DNA of 64,000 nucleotides, from assembly GCA_040754075.1 (NCBI GenBank), contig JBFMDH010000003.1, positions 14,307 through 78,306 of the forward strand. Reading direction: 5' to 3'. The notes beneath the pieces are model-generated. The model did not search any database, was not told the origin of the DNA, and saw nothing but the letters and a program-made list of their open reading frames with translations. This document shows positions 11,723 to 63,297 of the stretch, one piece after another. A program made the position numbers and the translations under genes. Each line of letters begins with the position of its first letter. The first letter of the stretch is position 1. Origin of the DNA: Acidobacteriota bacterium. GTDB lineage: Bacteria; Acidobacteriota; Blastocatellia; UBA7656.

Positions 11723-11851
11723 CGAAATACCTCTGAGCAGATAGCGAACGATGAATGATGAATTTAAGATAAAATCCAGCCGATTTTTGCTTCATCACTC
11801 ATCGTTCAAACTCAAATCTCTGGACACCGGACACCGGACTCATGACTTGGG

Positions 11852-38810: not shown

Positions 38811-40364
38811 ATGGCTGAGAGAATAAAAGTATTCGATACGACGCTACGTGATGGTGAACAATCGCCGGGTTGCAGTATGAATCTCGAAGAAAAGCTGCGT
38901 CTTGCACACCAACTCGACACCCTTGGCGTGGATGTTATCGAAGCCGGATTCCCAATTGCCTCAGACGATGATTTTGCGGCAGTTCGCGAAATTGCGCGAC
39001 AGGTTCGCCGTCCGATTATTGCAGCCCTGGCGCGCGCCACTCGCGAAGACATCGAACGCGCCTGGGAAGCTTTACAGGAAGCCGCCCGCCCACGCATTCA
39101 CACATTCCTTGCCACTTCCGATATTCATCTGACCGCTAAATTAAAAATCACCCGCGAAGAATGTCTGGCGCGCATTGCCGAATCGGTCGCCTTAGCCAAA
39201 AGTTTTACCGATGACGTCGAATTCTCAACCGAAGATGCAACCCGCACCGACCTCGACTTTTTAGTTGAAGCCGTCAGCGCCGCCGTCAAAGCCGGTGCCA
39301 CAACCGTGAATATCCCGGACACCGTTGGGTACACCATTCCACGCGAATACGCGCATATCATCAAGACGCTTCGCGAACGTGTCGAAGGCATCGAAAAAGT
39401 CACCATCTCTGTGCATTGTCATAATGATTTGGGAATGGCAGTTGCCAATTCGCTCGCGGCTATCGAAGCCGGAGCCAGACAAATCGAATGCACCATCAAT
39501 GGCATAGGTGAACGCGCCGGTAACGCTTCACTGGAAGAATTAGCGATGGCGCTCAATGTTCGCAAAGATTTGCTCGCCTATGAGACCGGCATTAACACGA
39601 CGGAAATTTATCGCAGCAGTCAGATGTTATCGAACATCACGGGTATTCCGGTGCAACCCAATAAAGCCATTGTCGGACGCAATGCTTTTGCGCACGAAGC
39701 CGGAATTCATCAACACGGGGTCATCGCCGATAAGTTGACTTATGAAATCATGAAGCCTGAAACCGTTGGCGTAAAACAAAGCGTCCTGGTGTTAGGCAAA
39801 CATTCCGGGCGTCACGCTTTGCAAAAACGTTATGAAGAGATGGGCTATGTGTTGACCCGAATTGAACTCGATAAAGCCTACAAACTCTTCACTATGCTTG
39901 CCGACCAGAAGAAAGATATTTACGACGAAGACCTGGTCGTCATTCTGCAAGATGGTCTGCGCGAAATTCCCGAAACCTTTAAACTGCGAAATGTTGAAGC
40001 GCTCGCCGGAACCACCAAAGATTCGTGGGCAACTGTGACCCTCGAACGCGATGAACAGGCGATGTCACGCAGCGCACACGCCGGAGGTCCGGTGGCTGCG
40101 GCTTACGCGGCAATTGATTTTCTTACGGGAACAAATCCCACACTGATTGATTACGAAGTGCGCTCAGTAACCGGCGGAGCCGATGCCGTGGGCGAAGTTT
40201 TTACGCACATTGAAATTGATGAAAAAACCTTCACGGGTCGCGCTGCTTCCACAGATGTTGTTGAAGCCAGCGCCCGCGCTTATTTGCATGCCATCAACAA
40301 AGCTCTGCACGCGCGCAGTTTGAATGCGCCTAAGAAAAAGAGCTTTGCAGGAGCAGCGGATTAA
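38811..40364 (+). CDS. leuA: 2-isopropylmalate synthase (or closely related citramalate synthase)
   Basis: [16 protein letters not shown] and [21 protein letters not shown] motifs of the HMGL-like DRE-TIM fold, with a C-terminal LeuA dimerisation/regulatory domain. 517 aa. Confidence 0.8.
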
Positions 40365-40369
40365 AAGAA

Positions 40370-40513
40370 ATGCAATACTCGGCAAATCGAAAACCGAATA
40401 GTTTTGCCAAAGCCGTCGTCAAAGAAACCGACGATATTCTTGCGCTTTCCGTCATTACTCTGCTTATTCCGGTAATTATTGTAGTCGTAGTACTGCTTAT
40501 TAAAAGCGGATGA
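40370..40513 (+). CDS. Branched-chain amino acid leader peptide (47 aa: MQYSANRKPNSFAKAVVKETDDILALSVITLLIPVIIVVVVLLIKSG)
   Basis: ATG 6 nt after the leuA stop. Twenty of the last 26 codons encode Ile/Leu/Val, including the run ATT ATT GTA GTC GTA GTA CTG CTT ATT. Followed by alternative hairpins and an intrinsic terminator ahead of ilvB. Confidence 0.7.
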   Translation: MQYSANRKPNSFAKAVVKETDDILALSVITLLIPVIIVVVVLLIKSG

Positions 40514-40582
40514 CGGTAACTTGCAAAAGAAAGCAAAAGCAAAAGCCGTCATCAAGAAAAAAAGATGACGGCTTTTGAATTT
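40449..40582 (+). promoter_or_regulatory. Four-segment transcription attenuator of the ilv operon
   Basis: Segment 1 CCGTCAT (40449-40455, inside the leader ORF). Segment 2 GATGACGG (40509-40516, overlapping the leader stop). Segment 3 GCCGTCATC (40544-40552). Segment 4 GATGACGGC (40563-40571) followed by TTTTGAATTTT. Pairings 1:2, 2:3 (antiterminator) and 3:4 (terminator) are mutually exclusive. Confidence 0.65.
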
Positions 40583-40631
40583 TACGGCGCAGCATCAACG
40601 AAATTGATTGCCATATCAAAAAGGAAATCGC

Positions 40632-42383
40632 ATGGGAGCCATAGCACGAGAACTCATTAAACGGGCAGCACAGCACGAACCCACGCCGCAAGTGATGAGC
40701 GGCGCACGCATCGTTTGTGAAGCGTTGATGCGCGAAGGCGTTGACACAATCTTCGGTTATCCGGGTGGGGTGGTGTTGCCGATTTACGATGAATTGCTTA
40801 ACTACAAAGGCAAAATCCGTCACATCCTGGTGCGTCACGAACAGGGCGCAATGCACATGGCTGAAGGTTACGCGAAAGCCACAGGCAAAGTCGGATGTGT
40901 GTTGGTCACCTCAGGTCCAGGCGCAACCAATACAGTCACCGGCATTGCCAATGCTTTTTTGGATTCAACGCCGCTGGTGGTCATCACCGGTCAAGTGCCG
41001 ACGAAACTCATCGGCAACGATGCCTTTCAGGAAGTCGATACCGTGGGCATCACGCGCGCCTGCACCAAGTACAACTATCTGGTAAGCGATGCGCGCGATT
41101 TGCCGCACATCATCAAAGAAGCCTTTTTCATTGCCCAAACCGGGCGTCCGGGTCCCGTGTTGATTGATATTCCCAAAGACGTTTGCACCCAAACCGCGCC
41201 CTTCGTTTATGCCGATAACATCAACGTTGCGGGCTATGCGCCCCACCTGTTTGGTGAATCGGAATCCATCAAACGCGCCGCGCAAAAAATCGCGTCTGCC
41301 GAAAGACCGATTCTCTACATCGGTGGCGGCGTCATTCACGCCAATGCCTTCGATGAAATCGTCGAACTTGCTGAGCGGCTTTCTTTGCCGGTCACGCCAA
41401 CTTTGATGGGACTTGGTGGATTTCCGTCGGGGCATCCGCTCAATTTGGGAATGCTTGGCATGCATGGAATGTACTGGGCAAATATGGCGGTTTCCGAAGC
41501 CGATTTGCTGATTGCCGTCGGCGCGCGATTTGATGACCGGGTGACCGGCGCGCTCAATAAATTCGCGCCCCATGCCGAAATCATTCACGTCGATATTGAC
41601 CCCGGTTCAATCAGCAAAAATGTTCGCGCCACCATAGGCATCGTCGGCGACGCGAAAACCGTGGCGCAACAATTGATTGATGCGCTCAGCGAAGCAGAAT
41701 GCGCGACGAGTCGCGAACGCCTCAACAGTTGGTGGCAACAGATAAACGAATGGAAAACTTATGCGCCGCTCACTTTTGATGATACGGATGAGGTGATTAT
41801 GCCGCAGCGGTTGATTCGCGAATTGCACCGTTTAACCCAGGGCGACGCGATTATCGCAACCGATGTCGGACAGCATCAGATGTGGCTTGCGCAATATTAT
41901 CCGTTCAATTCGCCGCGCCAGAATTTGACGTCGGGGGGACTCGGCACAATGGGTTATGGATTCCCTGCGGCGCTCGGCGCGCAACTGGCTTTTCCGAATC
42001 GTCAGGTGATTGCTTTTGTCGGCGACGGCGGATTTCAAATGACCGCGCAGGAACTGGCGACCGCTGTGAAGTGCCGCGCCAATGTCAAAGTCATTGTCAT
42101 GAACAACGCGACGTTGGGAATGGTGCGCCAACTGCAAGATTTGTTCTATGACGGTAATTGCACGAATGTTGATTTAAGCGGCAATCCCGATTTCGTCAAA
42201 CTCGCGGAAGCTTACGGGGCAACCGGACTGAGAGCCACACGCCCCGAAGAGTTGAGCGAAGTGTTAGAACGCGGCTTGAATACGCCCGGCGTGGTGGTGA
42301 TGGATATTGCGGTTGCCGATAACCTGAATGTCTATCCGATGGTTCCCGCAGGCGCAGGGCTGACGGAGATGATTTTGAATTGA
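40632..42383 (+). CDS. ilvB: Acetolactate synthase large (catalytic) subunit
   Basis: AGGAAA SD. TPP-enzyme motifs ([19 protein letters not shown]...N...) and 584-aa length. Confidence 0.9.
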
Positions 42384-42387
42384 AGAA

Positions 42388-42521
42388 GTCTGGAGTCTGG
42401 AGTCGAGAGTCTGGAGTCTCAAATTTGTAGGGGTGAGAGTAGCTTCAAAAATAGAGAGGCAAAATCAACGTTCAAATTTGAAACTGCGGACTCCAGACTC
42501 CAGACTCTCGACTCCAGACAG
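42388..42521. repeat. Inverted arrays of tandem heptamers (GTCTGGA x4 / GACTCCA x4) flanking a ~65-nt spacer in the ilvB-ilvN gap
   Basis: The left arm is gtctgga gtctgga gtcgaga gtctgga gtctc. The right arm is gactcca gactcca gactctc gactcca gacagtc, its approximate reverse complement. Inner direct repeats caaatttg x2. Confidence 0.7.
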
Positions 42522-42525
42522 TCTT

Positions 42526-43050
42526 ATGAAACATACAATTTCAGTAATTCTTGAAGACCGCTTCGGAGATTTGCAACGCATCGTTGGCATGTTCAGCGCC
42601 AAGTGTTTGCCGATTGAATCCCTGAGCGTTTCACCGACCATGAATGGCACGCTCTCTTCGGCAACTATCGTCACCAGTGGCGAAGCAAAAGCCATCGAAC
42701 AGATTGTCAAATTGCTCAATCGTCAGGTGCGCGTATTGAGCGCGGCGGATGTGACGAATCTCGATTGTATCGAGCGCGAAATGGCATTTGTGAAAGTCAA
42801 AGCGGAAAACGGCGAAGCGCGACAAAAGGCTTTGAATCTGGTGTCGCTTTTCCATGCCAAAATCGTAGATGCGACCAACGAAGGTTTCATTGTCGAAGTC
42901 ATTGGTGACAGCAATACGGTTCGCGGTCTGGTGCATTCGCTGCAACCGTTCGGCGTGCACGAGGTCGTGCGCACCGGAACCGTAGCCATCGAGCGATTGA
43001 ACGAAGCGGGTGAGCAAGCGGCTGCTAATTGCCAGGTCGCGGCAGATTGA
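42526..43050 (+). CDS. ilvN: Acetolactate synthase small (regulatory) subunit
   Basis: ACT domain MKHTISVILEDRFGDLQRIVGMFS and a C-terminal AHAS small-subunit domain. Confidence 0.85.
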   Translation: MKHTISVILEDRFGDLQRIVGMFSAKCLPIESLSVSPTMNGTLSSATIVTSGEAKAIEQIVKLLNRQVRVLSAADVTNLDCIEREMAFVKVKAENGEARQKALNLVSLFHAKIVDATNEGFIVEVIGDSNTVRGLVHSLQPFGVHEVVRTGTVAIERLNEAGEQAAANCQVAAD

Positions 43051-43160
43051 TTTTTGTTGAGCAAACGGTCTTTGACCGCGATGAGTATTACTCATTGAGC
43101 AAACGGTCTTTGACCGCAAATAAGAAGATTTGATGTCCGTTGAGTGAGCGGTCTAAAGAC
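43051..43160. repeat. Three tandem ~36-bp repeats, each carrying the palindrome (A/G)CGGTC-N3-GACCGC, in the ilvN-ilvC gap
   Basis: ttgagcaaacggtctttgaccgc x2 and ttgagtgagcggtctaaagaccgc, plus the palindrome ATGAGTATTACTCAT at about 43082. A related copy, ttgagcaagcggtc...gcggtcatagaccgc, lies at 36246-36301. Confidence 0.65.
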
Positions 43161-43208
43161 CGCGAGCGAAATTTAAACCAGGAAGATATTTTTAATTCAG
43201 AGGATTTT

Positions 43209-44225
43209 ATGAAAATTTTTTATGACAAAGATGCTGACCTTGACTATCTACGAGGTAAAAAAATCGCCATCATCGGGTATGGTTCACAAGGTCATGCGCA
43301 TGCGAATAATTTAAAAGATTCGGGTTGCGATGTAATTGTCGGACTCAAAGCCGGGAGCCTTTCGCGCGCCAAAGCCGAAGCCGCCGGTCTCACGGTTCAA
43401 GACACTGCCGAAGCTGCCTTCAACGCCGACATCATCATGATGCTGGTGCCCGATGAAGTCGCGCCGAAAATTTATGCGCAGGATATTGCGCCAAATCTGT
43501 TGCCCGGCAACTCCCTGGTGTTCGCGCATGGCTTTTCGATTCATTTCAAAAAAATCGTGCCGCCGGAAAACGTCAATGTTTTTATGGTTGCGCCCAAAGG
43601 TCCCGGTCATCTGGTGCGCCACGAATACACCGAAGGACGCGGTGTTCCGTGTTTGCTGGCAATTCATCAGGACGCCAGCGGCAACACCCAACAAACAGGA
43701 CTCGCTTATGCGTCGGCGATTGGCGGCGGTCGCGCGGCAATTTTGGAAACCACGTTTCGCGAAGAGACCGAGACCGACCTTTTCGGTGAACAAGCGGTCT
43801 TGTGCGGCGGTCTCGCCTCGCTCATTCAAGCCGGTTTCGATACCTTGGTTGAAGCGGGCTATTCACGCGAGATGGCTTATTTTGAATGCCTCCACGAAGT
43901 CAAACTCATCGTTGATTTAATTTATGAAGGCGGCATTTCCAACATGCGTTATTCGGTATCGAACACCGCCGAATATGGCGATCTATCGCGCGGCGGGCGC
44001 GTCATTAATGACGGCGTGCGGCAAGAGATGAAACAACTTTTAAAAGAAATTCAGTCGGGCGAATTCGCCGACGAATGGATGGCTGAAAATGAAGCCGGTA
44101 AACCGCGTTTCAAAGCTATGGAAGCCGCAGGACTGGCGCATCCGATTGAAGAGGTCGGCAGAGAGTTGCGCGGCATGATGCCCTGGCTTCAGCAAAATAA
44201 ATTGGTCAACAAAGCGAAAAATTAG
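43209..44225 (+). CDS. ilvC: Ketol-acid reductoisomerase
   Basis: NADP-binding motif [17 protein letters not shown], class-I KARI length (338 aa), and the C-terminal knotted domain. Confidence 0.9.
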
Positions 44226-44349
44226 CGAGAAGTGACGGGTGATGAAAGGGGCTGTTTCAAAGTGCTGAGAAGCAAATCGCATGGAAGACTCCTTAGAAAT
44301 TCGCCCGCTAGTCACTCGCCACTTGTCGCTAAATTAAAGAGAGGTAGTT

Positions 44350-44724
44350 ATGGGTTTTTACGATTGGGACAAAATGCGAGCCGAAGATATTTCGGAACTC
44401 TATAAACGGAAAATGGCGATTGGCGAAAATCTCACGGTCGCGCGCGTCGAAGTGCAACAGGGCGCAACCACCCAGACGCATTCACACGAGAGCGAAGAAG
44501 TCATCATGGTTTTAAAAGGCGCGTGGCGATTTTATCTGCCACACGGCGAAATCACCCTGCGCGCCAATCAAATGCTGTCGATTCCACCGGGCGTCGAACA
44601 TTCATCGGAAGTTCTGGAAGACACGGTTGCCATAGACATCTGCACACCGATGCGCTTTGATTGGATTACCGGCGAAGACCGTTTTTTGCATCAAGACCCG
44701 GATCAATTGCTCTGGGCAGTATAA
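44350..44724 (+). CDS. Cupin-2 domain protein inserted in the ilv operon
   Basis: Small beta-barrel cupin motifs (HSHESEEVIMVLKGAWRFYL, PPGVEHSS). Located between ilvC and ilvD. Confidence 0.55.
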   Translation: MGFYDWDKMRAEDISELYKRKMAIGENLTVARVEVQQGATTQTHSHESEEVIMVLKGAWRFYLPHGEITLRANQMLSIPPGVEHSSEVLEDTVAIDICTPMRFDWITGEDRFLHQDPDQLLWAV

Positions 44725-44725
44725 C

Positions 44726-44893
44726 TGGTGGTCGGTAGCCGGTCGTCGGCAGTCGGTTTTTAGCAATCAGTAGTTTGGTAAAACATTTGCTCTAGTTGTT
44801 GAGTTGAAATTCAATTACTAAACCAAATCCGTGCGAGCAACTGAATACGAAGAACCGATAACCGGCTACCGGCTACCGACTACTGACTACCAA
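44726..44893. repeat. Inverted arrays of tandem heptamers (GGTNGYC x4 / reverse complement x5) flanking a ~95-nt spacer in the cupin-ilvD gap
   Basis: Left arm: ggtggtc ggtagcc ggtcgtc ggcagtc ggt. Right arm: accgata accggct accggct accgact actgact acc. Confidence 0.65.
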
Positions 44894-44895
44894 CT

Positions 44896-46563
44896 ATGAG
44901 AAGTAATTTAATCAAACTCGGCGCAGAACGTGCACCGCATCGCAGCTTGCTCAAAGCTTGTGGTGTGACCGATGGCGATATGCCGAAACCGTTTATCGGC
45001 GTTTGCAATTCTTACATTGACATCATTCCCGGTCATCGCCATTTGCAGGAACTCGGCAAACTCGCAAAAGAAGCGGTGCGCGAAGCCGGTGGCATTCCAT
45101 TTGAATTCAATACCATCGGCGTTGATGATGGCATTGCGATGGGACACATCGGCATGAAGTACAGTTTGCCGTCGCGTGAAATCATCGCCGATTCGGTTGA
45201 AACGGTCATCGAAGCGCACCGGCTCGATGGCATGGTCTGCATTCCGAATTGCGACAAAATCGTGCCGGGAATGTTGATGGCGGCGATGCGCGTCAATGTG
45301 CCGGTGATTTTTGTAAGCGGCGGCGCGATGCGCGCGGGCAAGCTCTCAACCGGAAAAAGCGTCGATTTGATGCACGTCTTTGAAGGCGTCGGCGCAGTGC
45401 AAGCGGGAAAACTTTCTGCCGCAGAGCTTCAGGAAATCGAAGATGTCGCGTGTCCGACCTGCGGTTCATGTTCGGGAATGTTCACCGCCAATTCGATGAA
45501 CTGTTTGATGGAGGCGCTGGGGGTCGCGCTTCCCGGCAACGGTACGTTTTTAGCAGATTCAGTTGATCGCCGTGAACTGGTGAAACAAGCGGCAGCGCAG
45601 ATTATCGAACTGGTGAAAGCCGATTTCAAACCGAGCGATTACATCACGCTCGCGTCGTTTGATAATGCCTTTGCGCTCGATGTGGCGATGGGCGGTTCAA
45701 CCAACACCGTGTTGCACACGCTGGCGATTGCCCGTGAAGCGGGAATCGAATATCCGCTTGAACGTTTGAATGAAATCTCTCAGCGTGTGCCGACGATTTG
45801 CAAAGTCAGCCCGGCGCGTCCCGATGTGCACATCGAAGATGTTGAGAGAGTCGGCGGCATCAGCGCCATTTTGAAAGAACTCGCAAAACGCCAAGGGGCG
45901 CTGGAGTTAAATCAAAAGACCGTGACTATGCAAACGCTTGGCGAAAATATTCGCGAAGCCGCCGCGCCTGATGGCGATGTGATTCGCACCCTTGAAGAAC
46001 CTTTTTCGGAAACCGGCGCGCTGGCAACTTTATTCGGTAACCTCGCGCCCGAAGGCGCAGTCATCAAACGCGCCGCCGCCGATCTGGATTATTTTACCGG
46101 CACGGCGATGGTTTTCGATTCGATGGAAGAAGCCTGTTCTGCTATTTTAAGTGGACTCGTAAAAAAAGGTTCCGTGGTGGTGATTCGTTACGAAGGACCA
46201 CGCGGCGGTCCCGGTATGCAGGAGATGCTTGCGCCGACGGCAAACATCGTTGGCATGGGACTCGGGCGCGACGTGGCGCTGATCACCGATGGGCGGTTTT
46301 CGGGCGCGACCCGCGGCATCTGCATCGGGCATGTTTCACCGGAAGCCGCAGCCGGCGGGACGATTGCCGCGCTTAAAGACGGTGATGTGATTACCATCGA
46401 TTTGAAGAACAATCGTCTGGAAGTTGATTTGGATGCAAGCGAAATCGCCGCGCGCCTTGCCGCCTTGCCGCCATTTCAAACGCGCGTCAAGAGTTCGTAT
46501 TTGCGGCGCTATGCATCGCTTGTGACATCGGCGAACACCGGAGCGGTTCTCAGAAAAGTTTGA
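44896..46563 (+). CDS. ilvD: Dihydroxy-acid dehydratase
   Basis: ILVD/EDD family motifs ([36 protein letters not shown]). 555 aa. Confidence 0.9.
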
Positions 46564-46572
46564 AGAGTGCAG

Positions 46573-46653
46573 GGGTGAAAAGGTGAAGAGGTGAATGCGA
46601 AATTTAAATCGCTTTAAGCTCTGAATCCTGAGTCCTGAATCCTGAATCCTGAC
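46573..46653 (+). repeat. Tandem short repeats in the ilvD-leuB gap (GGTGAAR-A x3; CTGARTC heptamer x5)
   Basis: ggtgaaaa ggtgaaga ggtgaatg, then ctgaatc ctgagtc ctgaatc ctgaatc ctgact, immediately before the leuB ATG. Confidence 0.65.
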
Positions 46654-46654
46654 T

Positions 46655-47716
46655 ATGAAACTGGATATAGCCACATTACCGGGTGATGGAATCGGCAGAG
46701 AAGTCGTTGCCGAGGGCGTGAAGGTGGTTTGCGCCATTGCCCAGCGGTTCAATCACGAAGTCGATATTCGTGAGTATGCCATCGGTGGCTCGGCGCTTGA
46801 TGAATTTGATTCACCGTTTCCCGAAGCGACTGCAAAGGGTTGTCTGGCGAGCAAAGCCGTTTTATTAGGTGCGGTCGGTGGTCCAAAGTATGATGCGAAT
46901 CCGCGAGGCAAAAAACCCGAAGACGGACTTTTGGCGCTCAGAAAAACTTTGAAGGCGTATGCCAATCTGCGCCCGATTGTGGTTTACCAGGAGTTAATTG
47001 AGGCTTCGCCGCTGCGACCTGATATTGTCGAAGGTTGCGATATGTTGATCGTGCGCGAACTGCTCGGCGGATTGTATTTTGGCGAGCCGCGCGGCATCAA
47101 AGAAGACCAGGCGTTTAACACGATGGCTTATTCGATTCCTGAAATCGAACGCATCGCCCACGTGGCGTTCAAAGCCGCTGAAAAACGACGGGGCTTAGTG
47201 GCATCGGTTGATAAAGCGAATGTTTTGGAAACCTCGCAACTCTGGCGCGAAACCGTGAGCCGCGTGGCGCAAGCTTATCCAACCGTCAAACTCGAACACA
47301 TCTTGGTTGATAATTGCGCCATGCAAATTGTTCGCGACCCGCGCCGCTTTGATGTGATTTTAACCGAAAATATGTTCGGGGATATTTTGTCAGATGAGGC
47401 AGCCGTGATTGCCGGTTCCATCGGTATGCTGGCATCTGCAAGCCTTGGCGGCGAGGTGGGACTGTATGAACCGGTTCATGGTTCTGCGCCTGATATTGCA
47501 GGTCAAGGCAAAGCCAACCCGCTTGGCACTATTGCATCGGTTGCGATGATGTTGCGTTATTCATTCGACCTTGAAGAAGAGGCGCGTGCCGTTGAAAGCG
47601 CCATCAAAACCGCTCTGGCAAACGGTCTGCGCACGGCAGATTTAGTCACTGGAAGCTCAGCGGTTCCGACAGCTGTAATGGGCGATGCCATAAAATCGCT
47701 GCTCCTTAGTATTTAG
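46655..47716 (+). CDS. leuB: 3-isopropylmalate dehydrogenase
   Basis: Isocitrate/isopropylmalate dehydrogenase motifs ([32 protein letters not shown]). Confidence 0.9.
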
Positions 47717-55730: not shown

Positions 55731-56172
55731 AGTGATGAGTAATGAGTGATGAGTTTCTCATTTAGAGTTCATCACGTCGCCTCTGAACAGATGCGCGTAA
55801 TCCTCCGATTATCTGTCCTAATTCTTTTGCTTTTGTCATCAATGAATCAAAAGCTGGTTTCTCTAAATATCCCGCGTCTAATGCAACATAAAGTTGCGAA
55901 CGGAATTCGGCACAGGACGCTTTGGCAATCGAAAGAAATTGATGAAACTCTGTAGCTTTTCCTCGCTCAAACCCTTCAGCGATGTTTGACATGATCGAGA
56001 CTGAGGCTCTGCGAATTTGATCTTTCAAGCCATAATCCCGCGCAAATTTTCCTTCCTCAGTAACTTTATAAATGAATGAGGTCAACGCCCGAGCTTTTTG
56101 CCAGGCGATAAAATCTTCAAATTGTTCTATCCTGTTTCCACTCATTACTCATTACTCATCACTCATTACTTT
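55731..56172. mobile_element. Cassette: four-helix-bundle gene flanked by inverted arrays of tandem heptamers (AGTRATG x3 / YACTCAT x4)
   Basis: Left arm: agtgatg agtaatg agtgatg ag (55731-55753). Right arm: cactcat tactcat tactcat cactcat tact (56139-56172). The arms are reverse complements of each other. The cassette sits exactly in the gap between two minus-strand genes. Confidence 0.55.
55762..56145 (-). CDS. Four-helix-bundle protein of the type found in 23S rRNA intervening sequences (TIGR02436-like)
   Basis: 127 aa, all-alpha, with conserved pattern ...[56 protein letters not shown]... typical of this family. Confidence 0.6.
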
Positions 56173-58983: not shown

Positions 58984-59059
58984 AGAGCGAAAAGTTTAAC
59001 ATGCGAGCGGCGCGGGCGGACAGTTTTTAGAAATTTGTGGCGATACGGCATAGGGTTTT

Positions 59060-59180
59060 GTGAAAGTGAAAAGCGTAAACTCTGAAAGGAAGAAATTTTC
59101 CTGGATAGAGGCGGATACAACGCACCATCAGATGAATCCGCTCTATCCGAGAGTAAACCTTTCACTTTCGCAAGCGGCGC
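59060..59180. repeat. Nested inverted repeat (long imperfect hairpin) built from short tandem units, upstream of the DUF1592 gene
   Basis: Outer arms gtgaaagtgaaaagcg / cctttcactttcgc. Inner arms GGATAGAGGCGGAT / ATCCGCTCTATCC, with a 19-nt loop. Confidence 0.55.
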
Positions 59181-59347
59181 ATAGCGTTTCATGGTGAGGC
59201 GTCGGATTTTGAAAAAATTCATGATTTGGAAAAGGTTCAAACGCAGCCATTAAATTTTCAGTCTTTCTATTTCAGGCAGCACCCTTGGCGCGTATAATAA
59301 AAGCCACGTTCCGACCTTGATTTCTTAAACCGGATTAAGGCGCGTTT

Positions 59348-61831: not shown

Positions 61832-63187
61832 ATGATCATCACCCGCAAACATCTGCCGCGACGAATATTTTTAAAAGGCGTGGGAACCGCGATTGCCTTG
61901 CCGATGCTCGATGCGATGACGCCTGCACTGGCGTTGCCCAATCAAATGAAAGCCCGGACGCCTGTTCGTTTAGCTTTTGTCTATGTGCCAAACGGCATCG
62001 TCATGAAAGACTGGACGCCGAAAACCGCTGGCAAAGATTTTGAGTTCACGCGAATTTTGAAACCACTTGAAGCCTTTCGCGAAGATTTGCTGGTGCTTTC
62101 GGGACTCGATGACCACAACGGCAATGCGCTTGGCGACGGTCCGGGCGACCACGCGCGCGCCGGTGCAGCGATTTTAACCGGTGTGCATTGCAAAAAAACT
62201 GCGGGCGCAGATATTCATAACGGCATTTCTGCCGACCAGGTCGCGGCAAAAGCCATAGGCGCAAAGACTCGTCTGGCATCAATGGAACTCGGTTGCGAAG
62301 ATTCGCGCACTGTGGGCAATTGCGATTCGGGGTACAGTTGCGCTTATACCAACAGCATTTCCTGGCGCAGCGAAACCACGCCGATGCCGCCCGAAGTCAA
62401 TCCGCGCAACGCATTTGAACGATTGTTCGGGACAAATGATTACAGCCTCAATGCCGAAACCCGCGCCAGACGGGCAGAATATCGTAAGAGCATCCTTGAT
62501 TTGGTTCGCGAAGATTCCGAGAAACTGAGCAAGAGTCTAGGGCAGGCAGACCGTCGCAAAATTGACGAATACCTCACCGCAGTGAGAGAAGTTGAAAAGC
62601 AAATCGCTGCTGCCGAAAACGATAATGCACAGGTCAATCCGACGATTGAAAAACCCGCAGGCATTCCCGCGACGTTTCGTGAATATGCGAAAATCATGTT
62701 TGACCTGCAACTGGTGGCTTTTCAATCCGACATCACGCGCATCTCTACGTTGATGCTCGGTCGTGAAGGCAGCATGCGCGTCTATCCCGAAATTGAAGTC
62801 CCAGACCCACATCATCCGCTTACCCATCATCGCAATAATGCCGAGTGGATCGAGCGAGTCACGAAAATCAATTGTCTGCACACAGAATTATTCGCCTATT
62901 TTCTGCAACGGCTCAAATCCACAAAAGAGGGCGAAGGCACATTGCTCGACCATTCGATGATTGTTTATGTCAGTGGTCTAAGCGATGGCAATCGACACAC
63001 GCACGAAGAGTTGCCGGTGATTTTGGCGGGACGCGGCGATGGCAAACTTCAACCCGGATGCCATATGGTTTACAAAAGAGGCACGCCAATTACCAATTTG
63101 TATATGAATTTGCTTGAACACTTGGGCGTTCAAGTTGAGCGCCTTGGCGACAGCACCGGTAAACTCGCGCAGCTTACGGAAGGGTAA
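61832..63187 (+). CDS. DUF1552-family protein with twin-arginine signal (partner of DUF1592)
   Basis: GAGGAG SD. Tat motif RRIFLKGVGTAIALPMLDAM. 451 aa. Confidence 0.6.
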   Translation: MIITRKHLPRRIFLKGVGTAIALPMLDAMTPALALPNQMKARTPVRLAFVYVPNGIVMKDWTPKTAGKDFEFTRILKPLEAFREDLLVLSGLDDHNGNALGDGPGDHARAGAAILTGVHCKKTAGADIHNGISADQVAAKAIGAKTRLASMELGCEDSRTVGNCDSGYSCAYTNSISWRSETTPMPPEVNPRNAFERLFGTNDYSLNAETRARRAEYRKSILDLVREDSEKLSKSLGQADRRKIDEYLTAVREVEKQIAAAENDNAQVNPTIEKPAGIPATFREYAKIMFDLQLVAFQSDITRISTLMLGREGSMRVYPEIEVPDPHHPLTHHRNNAEWIERVTKINCLHTELFAYFLQRLKSTKEGEGTLLDHSMIVYVSGLSDGNRHTHEELPVILAGRGDGKLQPGCHMVYKRGTPITNLYMNLLEHLGVQVERLGDSTGKLAQLTEG

Positions 63188-63297
63188 AGATTTTTACATC
63201 GCTTTAATTTCTAAAATTTTTTCCTGCGGCTGTGCTGCTTTAAAGATTTTTACATCGCTTTAATTTCTAAAATTTTCTTCTGCGGCTGTGTTGCTTT
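63185..63297 (+). repeat. Tandem duplication of a ~57-bp unit beginning at the DUF1552 stop codon
   Basis: taaagatttttacatcgctttaatttctaaaatttt(t)tcctgcggctgtgctgcttt occurs twice with three mismatches/indels. Followed by hairpins CGGGGA...TCCCCG and GGGGC-tac-GCCCC. Confidence 0.75.

Follow-up and report, generated by a model that had tools for sequence, protein, structure and literature searches.

Tandem heptanucleotide arrays in operon spacers of a Blastocatellia (Acidobacteriota) MAG are best read as the terminal inverted repeats of self-folding intercistronic insertions of the intervening-sequence (IVS) type, which occur with and without an ORF and would be pinched out of the mRNA by their own stem; we put the probability of this interpretation at roughly 0.55. 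The window, the whole 64,000-nucleotide stretch analyzed, contains both an ilv operon (leuA-ilvB-ilvN-ilvC-cupin-ilvD-leuB) whose spacers hold ORF-less elements and a cassette with an IVP gene, IVP being the PF05635/TIGR02436 "23S rRNA intervening-sequence protein," a four-helix bundle.

The heptamer arrays that an earlier note described from the sequence are real: the window has six period-7 arrays scoring at least 10, compared with a mean of 0.1 and a maximum of 2 in 200 dinucleotide-preserving shuffles. No two window elements have the same sequence, the units including AGTCTGG, GGTNGYC, GTGATGA, CTGAATC, and others, and GGG runs are absent from the window units apart from a single GGGG at 46571-46574. 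Across 582 kb of the window plus relatives, period 7 is enriched among tandem arrays, with 39 versus no more than three for each of the other periods between 4 and 12, and the autocorrelation of intergenic DNA peaks at lags 7, 14, and 21, the lineage-wide period-7 signal being restricted to intergenic DNA. A reverse-complement partner lies no more than 800 nt away in 36 of 53 arrays and a direct partner in only two, and the inverted pairing of the arms reported in the note is equally real, with complementarity of 100%, 77%, and 96% over 25, 44, and 24 nt, respectively, in three elements described below.

Strong inverted-heptamer hairpins occupy three of the six ilv spacers (ilvB-ilvN, ilvC-cupin, and cupin-ilvD), so the initial impression that almost every spacer carries one was overstated. 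The ilvB-ilvN element (42387..42519, plus strand; TRF, inverted repeats, and fold) has a 5' arm at 42387-42419 (AGTCTGG x4.7), a loop at 42420-42488, and a 3' arm at 42489-42519 (GACTCCA x4.4). The arms are complementary over 31 nt at 87% and include a 25-nt core (42395-42419/42495-42519) with perfect complementarity, in which the variant unit GTCGAGA has its mirror, TCTCGAC, in the opposite arm; the predicted RNA fold is -70.7 kcal/mol (z -8.2). The stem base sits 4 nt past the ilvB stop codon and 6 nt ahead of the ilvN ATG, and the spacer has no Shine-Dalgarno sequence before ilvN. The cupin-ilvD element (44727..44896, plus strand; TRF, inverted repeats, fold, and compensatory changes) consists of a 5' arm at 44727-44757 (GGTNGYC units, a period-7 array by TRF), a loop at about 44758-44854, and a 3' arm at 44855-44896 (ACCGRCT x5, with the TRF array, x5.1, at 44861-44896). 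Its inverted pair (44728/44840) spans 44 nt at 77%, its RNA fold is -76.7 kcal/mol (z -8.4), and it runs up to the ilvD ATG (44896), again with no Shine-Dalgarno sequence in the spacer before the start. The ilvC-cupin hairpin (44222..44335, plus strand; inverted repeat, fold, and orthologues) has degenerate IVP-type arms (GTGACGG GTGATGA at 44231-44245 and GTCACTC GCCACTT at 44306-44320), an inverted repeat of 44 nt at 70%, and an RNA fold with z -4.8, and it retains a Shine-Dalgarno sequence downstream. The loops of the ilv spacer elements are 45 to 100 nt long and contain no ORF, and tblastn finds no IVP remnant in them.

We note that elements are concentrated in the ilv operon. Two further spacers were considered and rejected as heptamer elements: the ilvN-ilvC repeats are unrelated, three direct copies of 23 nt that have small hairpins of their own, and leuA-ilvB is a leader-peptide attenuator. 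Strong hairpins within an operon already under attenuation control could be intrinsic terminators or attenuators that partition operon transcription, but the 3' arms are not followed by a U-tract, a terminator scan returns 17 hits versus a shuffle expectation of 15.6, and the genuine attenuator, which does carry a U-run, is a distinct structure upstream of ilvB. We consider this explanation scarcely credible.

The ilvD-leuB spacer (46574..46652, plus strand; TRF, fold, and orthologous spacers) is an unpaired variant of the heptamer design. Its two arrays, GGTGAAR x about 3 at 46574-46595 (a period-8 row by TRF) and CTGAATC x4.6 at 46621-46652, the latter ending 2 nt ahead of the leuB ATG, are one-sided as first described, but they are noncomplementary and do not pair, with no significant RNA fold for the spacer (z -0.8). 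The one-sided design is conserved in L001-L003 and is retained in four genomes. The arrays could instead be multivalent sites for a post-transcriptional regulator, with each heptamer bound by one protein, perhaps IVP itself or one of the cold-shock, S1, or CsrA type that has been proposed for TAACTGA repeats; translation of the next gene would then be under its control and the hairpin would be secondary. The 3' arms abut the starts of ilvN, ilvD, and leuB, all lacking a Shine-Dalgarno sequence, TAACTGA repeats provide a parallel in lying 1 nt before starts with one CspB protein per heptamer (PMC4679880), and 2GSC, the nearest solved homologue, has five chains in its entry; the units can also be phased as AG[T/G]NNNN, although this AGK phasing was picked post hoc. 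However, arm complementarity is the dominant feature and the heptamer varies between spacers and between genomes, so no single sequence-specific binder fits, and we regard regulator sites as an unlikely general explanation. Among the insertions as we interpret them, some members may have acquired sequence-specific roles, since the ilvD-leuB arrays are unpaired and the ilvC-cupin loop is conserved above the level of coding DNA, and a "neutral pinch-out" model does not explain such possible roles. The ilvC-cupin element has orthologues in two relatives (L001 and L125), and its column identity among the three genomes is 92%, compared with about 81% for coding DNA.

The link to IVSs comes from the full cassette at 55731..56170 (minus strand; Pfam, NCBIfam, complementary arms, and sequence), which lies between two minus-strand genes, 3 nt past the upstream stop codon and 12 nt short of the ATG that follows. 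In the sense direction, it has a 5' arm at 56140-56170 (GTRATGA x4.4, with the ATG inside the arm), an ORF at 55762-56145 that matches PF05635 by Pfam (E 6.5e-36) and TIGR02436 by NCBIfam, and a 3' arm at 55731-55754 (ACTCATY x3.4), both arms being TRF arrays and complementary over 24 nt at 96% (55731/56140). The matching architecture proposed for this four-helix-bundle cassette is thus borne out, and it extends well beyond the window. Among 73 metagenome IVP genes, complementary flanks are present in 56, and a period-7 run is found in 49 versus 1 for other periods; in a like-for-like control, 43 of 64 IVP genes are bracketed, compared with 10 of 693 other genes. Bracketed IVP genes are also found on plasmids of Nostoc, Calothrix, Stanieria, Picosynechococcus, and Riemerella, and the IVP gene and its upstream neighbor are co-oriented in 52 of 59 instances. 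In sense orientation, cassettes and ORF-less elements alike run from a G/T-rich 5' arm to an A/C-rich 3' arm (5' arm G>C in 53/56 cassettes and 18/20 ORF-less elements). Some also have the heptamer in common: the GACTCCA/AGTCTGG units of the window recur as the arms of two cassettes (L111 and L115), and heptamers of the GTGATGA type are present at 44226 and 11791. The claim of one element family rather than coincidence is supported by this common architecture, polarity, and heptamer usage, together with the recurring orthologous design and empty sites described below.

Another member, absent from the earlier note, is located on the minus strand at 11746..11839 (sequence, fold, and TRF), where a hairpin at 11746-11807 with IVP-type arms (GAACGATGAGTGATGAA / TTCATCATTCATCGTTC) occupies a co-directional spacer (RNA fold z -4.4). 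In the sense direction, a direct array (GTCCGGT x2.6, 11822-11839) comes before the hairpin. A hairpin between divergent genes at 59058..59173 (plus strand; inverted repeat, fold, and sequence) is a doubtful member. It was credited with the same heptamer architecture; the hairpin itself stands (31 nt at 74%; RNA fold of 59050-59190, z -5.3), but its arms (GTGAAAG TGAAAAG) have weak heptamer character and weak 7-nt periodicity.

Comparison of 33 related ilv loci shows that the same spacers are empty in some and hairpin-filled in others, and the design is found again in orthologous spacers of about 30 Blastocatellia genomes. Empty spacers range from an overlap up to 28 nt, and filled spacers conserve the design with a different heptamer. 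The ilvB-ilvN spacer is short in 12 loci (a 4-nt overlap in eleven and 24 nt in the other) versus long in 14, and that of ilvC-cupin is 9 to 28 nt in 7 versus long in 22. Across 36 strong hairpins, the stem begins a median of 2.5 nt past the stop codon (5' tail) and stops a median of 13 nt short of the next start (3' tail); the median tail sum of 16 nt is inside the 9- to 28-nt range of empty ilvC-cupin spacers. We propose that the arms pair in the polycistronic transcript, in any of several 7-nt registers, to form a stem of 25 to 45 bp that would pinch the insertion out of the message and leave stop and start codons as near as in an empty spacer. The insertion would be tolerated because this brings stop and start together and keeps translational coupling, and a ribosome terminating upstream would open the stem base beside the downstream start. 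By analogy, the elements are probably RNase III substrates: in the homologous rRNA IVSs, the enzyme cleaves duplexes of this sort, long and nearly perfect, and the ilv mRNA is therefore predicted to be segmented into pieces with stem-protected ends.

The arrays turn over by slippage, with length differences of exactly 7 or 14 nt in population samples, and the two arms remain complementary as they do so; in three orthologues (the window, L001, and L125), the arms of the cupin-ilvD stem covary, with compensatory double changes in 8 of 67 pairs. These steps of 7, also seen among orthologues, and the exact mirroring of a variant unit in the opposite arm are what would be expected of neutral by-products made in place. 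On that explanation, 7-nt units in AT/GT-rich spacers grow by slippage during replication, and "quasi-palindrome correction" through template switching holds the arms complementary, with no mobility, cargo relationship, or function. There are also no target-site duplications at element boundaries and no transposase with the elements, no known transposase is encoded by the cassette ORF (the candidate "autonomous" partner), and two IVP alleles traced across samples are always in the same context, none in two. For the same reasons, the MITE-like status suggested in the earlier note is not established and the evidence for mobility is indirect, and multiple near-identical copies are not seen, the window elements all differing. 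By-products of this kind, however, would not account for one gene family being bracketed at 48 times the frequency seen for other genes, for polarity fixed relative to gene direction, or for the precise position directly past the stop codon. Nor do they account for the recurrence of arm families: an arm family can be present in two spacers of the same genome (L003, L126), and it lies in a different spacer in a relative (L127), the contrast between L127 and L128 coming from short contigs of low coverage. We think it improbable that the arrays are simply such by-products.

A further explanation, already suggested for the Xanthomonas GGGAATC repeats, is that the arrays influence replication, supercoiling, or recombination by forming DNA structures such as cruciforms, slipped DNA, or G-quadruplexes; in DNA, the arms are near-perfect palindromes. 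The sense-strand fold is better than the antisense fold in 15 of 20 ORF-less elements (p = 0.06), and cassette arm mismatches comprise 47 G:U versus 72 A:C, a spectrum that does not favor sense-strand RNA; since this wobble test gives no clear sense-RNA signal, a DNA-level palindrome is equally compatible with it. A rearrangement junction between L127 and L128, on short, low-coverage contigs, falls at an element boundary, and G-rich heptamers have a published precedent as G-quadruplex formers in the Xanthomonas GGGAATC repeats (PMC4692102). But most units lack a G3 tract, and orientation with transcription, between the stop and start of co-directional genes, is not predicted by a purely DNA-structural role, which we consider very unlikely.

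The earlier note did not recognize the arrays as a family already described, but tandem heptamers have precedents in cyanobacterial STRRs, TAACTGA repeats, and inverted GGGAATC pairs of Xanthomonas. STRR units of heterocystous cyanobacteria are CCCCAGT, TTGGTCA, and CAACAGT; the Blastocatellia elements are likewise 7-nt intergenic tandem repeats but do not use these units. TAACTGA direct repeats of Beggiatoaceae, Cyanobacteria, and Bacteroidetes are sets of one unit, with one inverted case among 170 sets, and no link to PF05635 genes is drawn (MacGregor 2015, PMC4679880). Like STRRs, they are intergenic tandem 7-mers, often few nucleotides before a start, with shorter, repeat-free spacers in related genomes, whereas inverted arrangement and unit diversity are the rule in Blastocatellia. 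The Xanthomonas GGGAATC heptamers form 70 to 75 convergent inverted pairs of one G-rich unit genome-wide, read as a G-quadruplex former, with no gene link drawn and no mobile-element association reported (Rehm et al. 2015, PMC4692102). They resemble the present elements as intergenic tandem heptamers, often close convergent pairs able to form a stem-loop, with the repeat type kept between species and the length variable; here, however, the units are numerous and unrelated, and most have no G-tract.

Within a genome, REP sequences belong to a single conserved family that has a GTAG/CGTC head and is accompanied by a RAYT transposase. Proteobacterial REP/BIME/REPIN elements are similarly short palindromes in co-directional operon spacers, able to form mRNA hairpins, and nonautonomous relatives of a gene-carrying element, but the present elements have periodic arms and neither a conserved sequence nor a transposase, and no RAYT was seen in a non-exhaustive look at the window. 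The closest likeness is to rRNA IVSs, which insert in helices 9, 25, and 45 of 23S/16S rRNA. The IVS analogy is apt, as the same gene family occupies the cassette loop (55731-56170, not the ilv spacer elements), the inverted-repeat stem is about 25 to 30 bp (24 nt at 96% in the cassette and 25 to 44 nt in the ilv arms), and the elements are sense oriented inside a host transcript. The host differs, being an mRNA operon spacer between protein-coding genes rather than an rRNA helix, and no rRNA is present in the 40 IVP loci scanned (of 80), nor any Rfam match in the window. IVSs with an S23p/PF05635 ORF are known in Leptospira and Coxiella, and short ORF-less versions exist; in that of Coxiella, which carries an S23p ORF, the terminal repeats form a 28-bp stem that RNase III cuts midway (PMC4990558). 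We found no description of tandem-heptamer arms for IVSs in the literature.

Heptamer repeats and IVSs are each already known, and no description of a link between them was found in the literature. The ilv spacer hairpins of a soil bacterium and the arms of its IVP gene, a small, widespread gene first known from rRNA insertions, thus join two puzzles hitherto studied apart. A bolder proposal, which we offer as speculation with the odds against it, is that Avd-like IVS proteins are the dedicated partner of a widespread class of these transposase-less heptamer-array elements, and that the protein, probably a pentamer like Avd, recognizes the 7-nt arms and promotes copying, homogenization, or insertion beside stop codons, such that rRNA IVSs, STRRs, GGGAATC pairs, and operon hairpins are one system. 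If true, such a partner system would account for the overabundance of heptanucleotide repeats that has long been noted in bacterial genomes.

The ilv operon of the window runs, on the plus strand and by Pfam assignment, as leuA (38811-40364), ilvB (40608-42383), ilvN (42526-43050), ilvC (43209-44225), a small cupin gene (44350-44724), ilvD (44896-46563), and leuB (46655-47716), and Tandem Repeats Finder (TRF) places heptamer arrays where an earlier note had described inverted arrays in almost every spacer. Across the window there are six period-7 arrays, against 0.1 expected (200 dinucleotide shuffles; maximum 2). In the ilvB-ilvN spacer an inverted-repeat tool pairs arms of 25 nt at 100% complementarity, with even a variant unit, GTCGAGA, matched by TCTCGAC, and RNA folds surpass those of shuffled sequences here (z = -8.2) and in the cupin-ilvD (z = -8.4) and ilvC-cupin (z = -4.8) spacers. 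Another such hairpin, absent from the earlier note, is at 11746-11807 on the minus strand. The inverted heptamer arrays are confirmed, and the design reaches far beyond the window. A common design for the ilv spacers applies to these three, but not to leuA-ilvB, which is an attenuator, or to ilvN-ilvC, which has 23-nt units; counting ilvD-leuB as a structured member was an overstatement, as its two arrays are noncomplementary and its fold is nonsignificant (z = -0.8).

The leuA-ilvB spacer (40370-40590) contains an open reading frame (ORF) for a 47-aa leader peptide, MQYSANRKPNSFAKAVVKETDDILALSVITLLIPVIIVVVVLLIKSG, with a Val/Ile/Leu-rich C-terminal end, LLIPVIIVVVVLLIKSG, and downstream of it a terminator hairpin (AAAAGCCGTCATC/GATGACGGCTTTT) and U-run. 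This is a classical leader-peptide attenuator, and GATGACGG, which is located at the leader stop and duplicates the terminator 3' arm, is likely the antiterminator. The arrangement upstream of ilvB is also kept in related loci L001-L003 and L013, and its position indicates that the attenuated operon begins at ilvB. The ilvN-ilvC spacer (43051-43208) has three direct copies of a nonheptameric unit of ∼23 nt, TTGAGCAAACGGTCTTTGACCGC, with a small hairpin in each, and is only 16 nt long in L001, the closest relative. As a dispersed family this repeat is unconvincing, with 4 matches against 0.9 expected and equally good results in 2 of 100 shuffles. The window-wide count of GTGATGA and its complement (37 versus 7 expected from shuffles) is uninformative, because the occurrences are mostly intragenic, and an Rfam scan of the whole window returned no families. 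We note separately that a 56-nt AT-rich unit is tandemly duplicated at 63185-63297 (94% identity; TRF score 205), adjoining the 3' end of a gene that ends at 63187.

The cupin query recovered 32 orthologous loci, all of them metagenome-assembled genomes (MAGs) of Blastocatellia, Pyrinomonadaceae, or Chloracidobacterium, with 93% cupin identity in the closest. The lineage sample comprises 36 genome loci (518 kb) retrieved by this query, 32 of which are these Acidobacteriota ilv loci, and totals 582 kb together with the window. These 582 kb contain 39 arrays of period 7, whereas none of the other periods between 4 and 12 exceeds 3, and autocorrelation peaks at lags of 7, 14, and 21 in intergenic DNA and is absent from coding DNA. 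A reverse-complement partner lies within 800 nt of 36 of 53 arrays, and a direct partner of only 2. The heptamer-array design is lineage-wide. The 124-aa cupin (window 44350-44724 and L001-L032) is itself a conserved ilv operon member throughout Blastocatellia, in the order ilvC-cupin-ilvD or ilvC-cupin-leuA/leuB, and a comparison with NCBIfam gave no matching families.

Comparison with relatives, proposed earlier as a check for presence or absence, shows that orthologous ilv spacers are either empty or filled with an element. At the ilvB-ilvN junction, eleven genomes have a 4-nt overlap, one has a 24-nt spacer, and 14 have a long spacer, with strong hairpins in 10 of these 14; the ilvC-cupin spacer measures 9 to 28 nt in 7 genomes, and 22 have a long one. 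The heptamer differs in almost every genome with a filled spacer (GGATACA/CTGAATC, GGATTTT, TATTTTC, AGATGTT, GGTCATT, AGGATCT, TCCGTAG, and others). Among 36 strong hairpins, the median distance from the stop codon to the stem is 2.5 nt and that from the stem to the next start codon is 13 nt, and the summed unpaired tails (median, 16 nt) fall inside the 9- to 28-nt range of empty ilvC-cupin spacers. In these loci arrays cluster in the ilv operon, where 22 of 142 junctions have one, versus 4 of 187 other codirectional junctions. The ilvC-cupin loop (window 44246-44304) is nearly invariant across the window, L001, and L125, and the whole element has 92% column identity over these three genomes. 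Conservation of the loop above that of their coding DNA, which is ∼81% identical, suggests a sequence-specific function beyond the hairpin, such as a small RNA or protein site.

The same design brackets a gene. The window ORF at 55762-56145 (minus strand; 127 aa) is a member of PF05635 and TIGR02436, the four-helix-bundle "23S rRNA intervening-sequence protein" (IVP) family, in which this protein has over 7,900 relatives; among solved structures, Xanthomonas XCC0516 (PDB 2GSC) is the nearest, and the PF05635 description is of Avd-like, functionally uncharacterized proteins. The ORF is situated between two minus-strand genes and is flanked by arrays (GTRATGA/ACTCATY) with 96% complementarity, with its start ATG inside the 5' arm. 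Among 80 metagenome loci encoding relatives, complementary flanks occur at 56 of the 73 testable and a period-7 flank run in 49, versus 1 for other periods; a control that treated all genes alike gave complementary flanks for 43 of 64 IVP genes and 10 of 693 other genes. The heptamer class follows IVP similarity (ACTCATY, then NCTCAGN, then GACTTTG), which argues that the arms are inherited with the gene. Such brackets are found in Acidobacteriota, Cyanobacteriota, and Bacteroidota, including plasmids from cultured Nostoc, Calothrix, Stanieria, Picosynechococcus, and Riemerella, where GGGTGTA, GTAGGGA, and AACCTTG are among the units. The IVP gene is co-oriented with its upstream neighbor in 52 of 59 cases. 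On a plasmid of Picosynechococcus sp. PCC 7003 a cassette separates cas10/cmr2 from cmr3 in a type III-B CRISPR module, another separates nrdB from nrdA on a Nostoc edaphicum plasmid, there on the opposite strand, and two with different heptamers occupy consecutive spacers of a polysaccharide operon (L135-L140). Rfam detected neither rRNA nor any other family in 40 IVP loci, and searches with the window IVP gave no matches in PADLOC or in phage and viral collections. A few non-IVP genes, an ilvD paralogue among them, are also bracketed by complementary arrays with scores of 21 to 29 (L007, 14240-15997; L030, 11727-12884; L083, 566-1531); these may reflect adjacent spacers with elements of one arm family.

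The ORF-less elements and the IVP cassettes belong together. Relative to gene direction, the 5' arm is G-rich and C-poor in 53 of 56 cassettes and 18 of 20 ORF-less elements. The AGTCTGG/GACTCCA heptamer of the window ilvB-ilvN arms is common to cassettes L111 and L115, and the GTGATGA type of the window cassette recurs in the hairpins at ilvC-cupin and 11746-11807 and in the ilvB-ilvN element of L001. The window cassette begins 3 nt past the upstream stop and ends 12 nt ahead of the downstream ATG, matching the ORF-less elements in geometry. The earlier proposal of one IVS-like family (IVS, intervening sequence) is partly borne out by this common polarity, heptamer use, and stop/start placement.

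Array copy number changes by slippage in steps of 7. One cassette followed across ten metagenomes has six or eight units in its 3' array, a difference of exactly 14 nt, and the adjoining cassette has three or four units in its 5' array. Arrays are also found at contig breaks and several ORF calls here extend into heptamer arms; arrays polymorphic in 7-nt steps and located at contig breaks are relevant for MAG assembly and gene-start calling. In the cupin-ilvD arms of three orthologues, 8 of 67 pairs have changed on both sides in a compensatory way, so that complementarity is kept; for the ilvC-cupin stem, RNAalifold gives one-sided changes only. Two spacers of a genome can share an arm family (GGTTACT in L003 and TCCGTAG in L126), and the window arm ACCGGCTACTGACTACC is upstream, not downstream, of the cupin gene in L127. 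Two metagenome contigs that encode the same cupin protein, L127 and L128, share 99.8% identity between the Shine-Dalgarno sequence and the end of the cupin gene and are entirely different upstream, where one has ilvC and a GGAAAAA-type hairpin and the other a minus-strand gene and an ACCGGCT-type hairpin; the divergence sets in at the right end of the element. Either the DNA was rearranged at the element or strains were mixed in assemblies of low coverage, and the contrast carries limited weight given the short, low-coverage contigs. Recent transposition was sought and not found, as IVP alleles P0004 and P0081, traced across samples, were always in one context, and no target-site duplications or conserved target were found at outer boundaries. 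We noticed post hoc that AGAA is frequent before the 5' arm and that termini often read AGT...ACT.

The comparisons establish a 7-periodic palindromic insertion between stop and start codons, in gene-tied orientation, with and without cargo. In polycistronic RNA, pairing of the arms would draw the stop codon close to the start codon, such that the insertion would be structurally excluded and presumably tolerated. The footprint of a terminating ribosome would extend into the first one or two 5'-arm units and free the matching 3'-arm end beside the downstream ATG, which would matter for ilvN, ilvD, and leuB; in the window, a Shine-Dalgarno sequence is missing from all three. The 25- to 45-bp near-perfect duplex would probably also be cut by RNase III, by analogy with the Coxiella IVS. 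As a gauge of RNA-level versus DNA-level selection, the two forms give conflicting signals: the sense strand folds better in 15 of 20 ORF-less elements (p = 0.06), and the mismatches in cassette arms are 47 G:U versus 72 A:C. Alternatively, the elements could act as terminators, which is unlikely because they have no U-tract and a terminator scan does not exceed shuffles.

Heptanucleotide tandem repeats are over-represented in several bacterial phyla, those of cyanobacteria being termed STRR, and IVSs fragment 23S rRNA. TAACTGA direct repeats end just ahead of start codons in Beggiatoaceae, Cyanobacteria, and Bacteroidetes (PMC4679880), and 70 to 75 Xanthomonas GGGAATC arrays form convergent inverted pairs, which were read as G-quadruplex formers and reported without mobile-element association (PMC4692102). 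Neither of these papers mentions a four-helix-bundle gene, and a literature text search, with most subscription journals outside its reach, found no publication linking one to heptamer repeats. Known 23S rRNA IVSs include ones that carry an S23p ORF between terminal inverted repeats; in Coxiella, a 28-bp terminal-repeat stem surrounds the S23p ORF and RNase III cuts mid-stem (PMC4990558). The window elements resemble these in their terminal inverted repeats and, in the cassette, the S23p/IVP ORF but differ in being located in mRNA spacers and having heptamer arms. We read them as IVS-type cassettes in mRNA spacers, with inverted repeats made of heptamer arrays.

The heptamer-repeat excess, 23S rRNA IVSs, and the PF05635/TIGR02436 orphan family, which stand apart in the literature, are here tied together, and ORF-less copies of the IVP-bracket design occupy operon spacers at a precise stop-start position. 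The link is directly testable, and it bears on operon mRNA segmentation in poorly studied phyla, on the role of the IVS protein, and on how a transposase-less gene enters unrelated operons (ilv, nrd, cmr, and polysaccharide).
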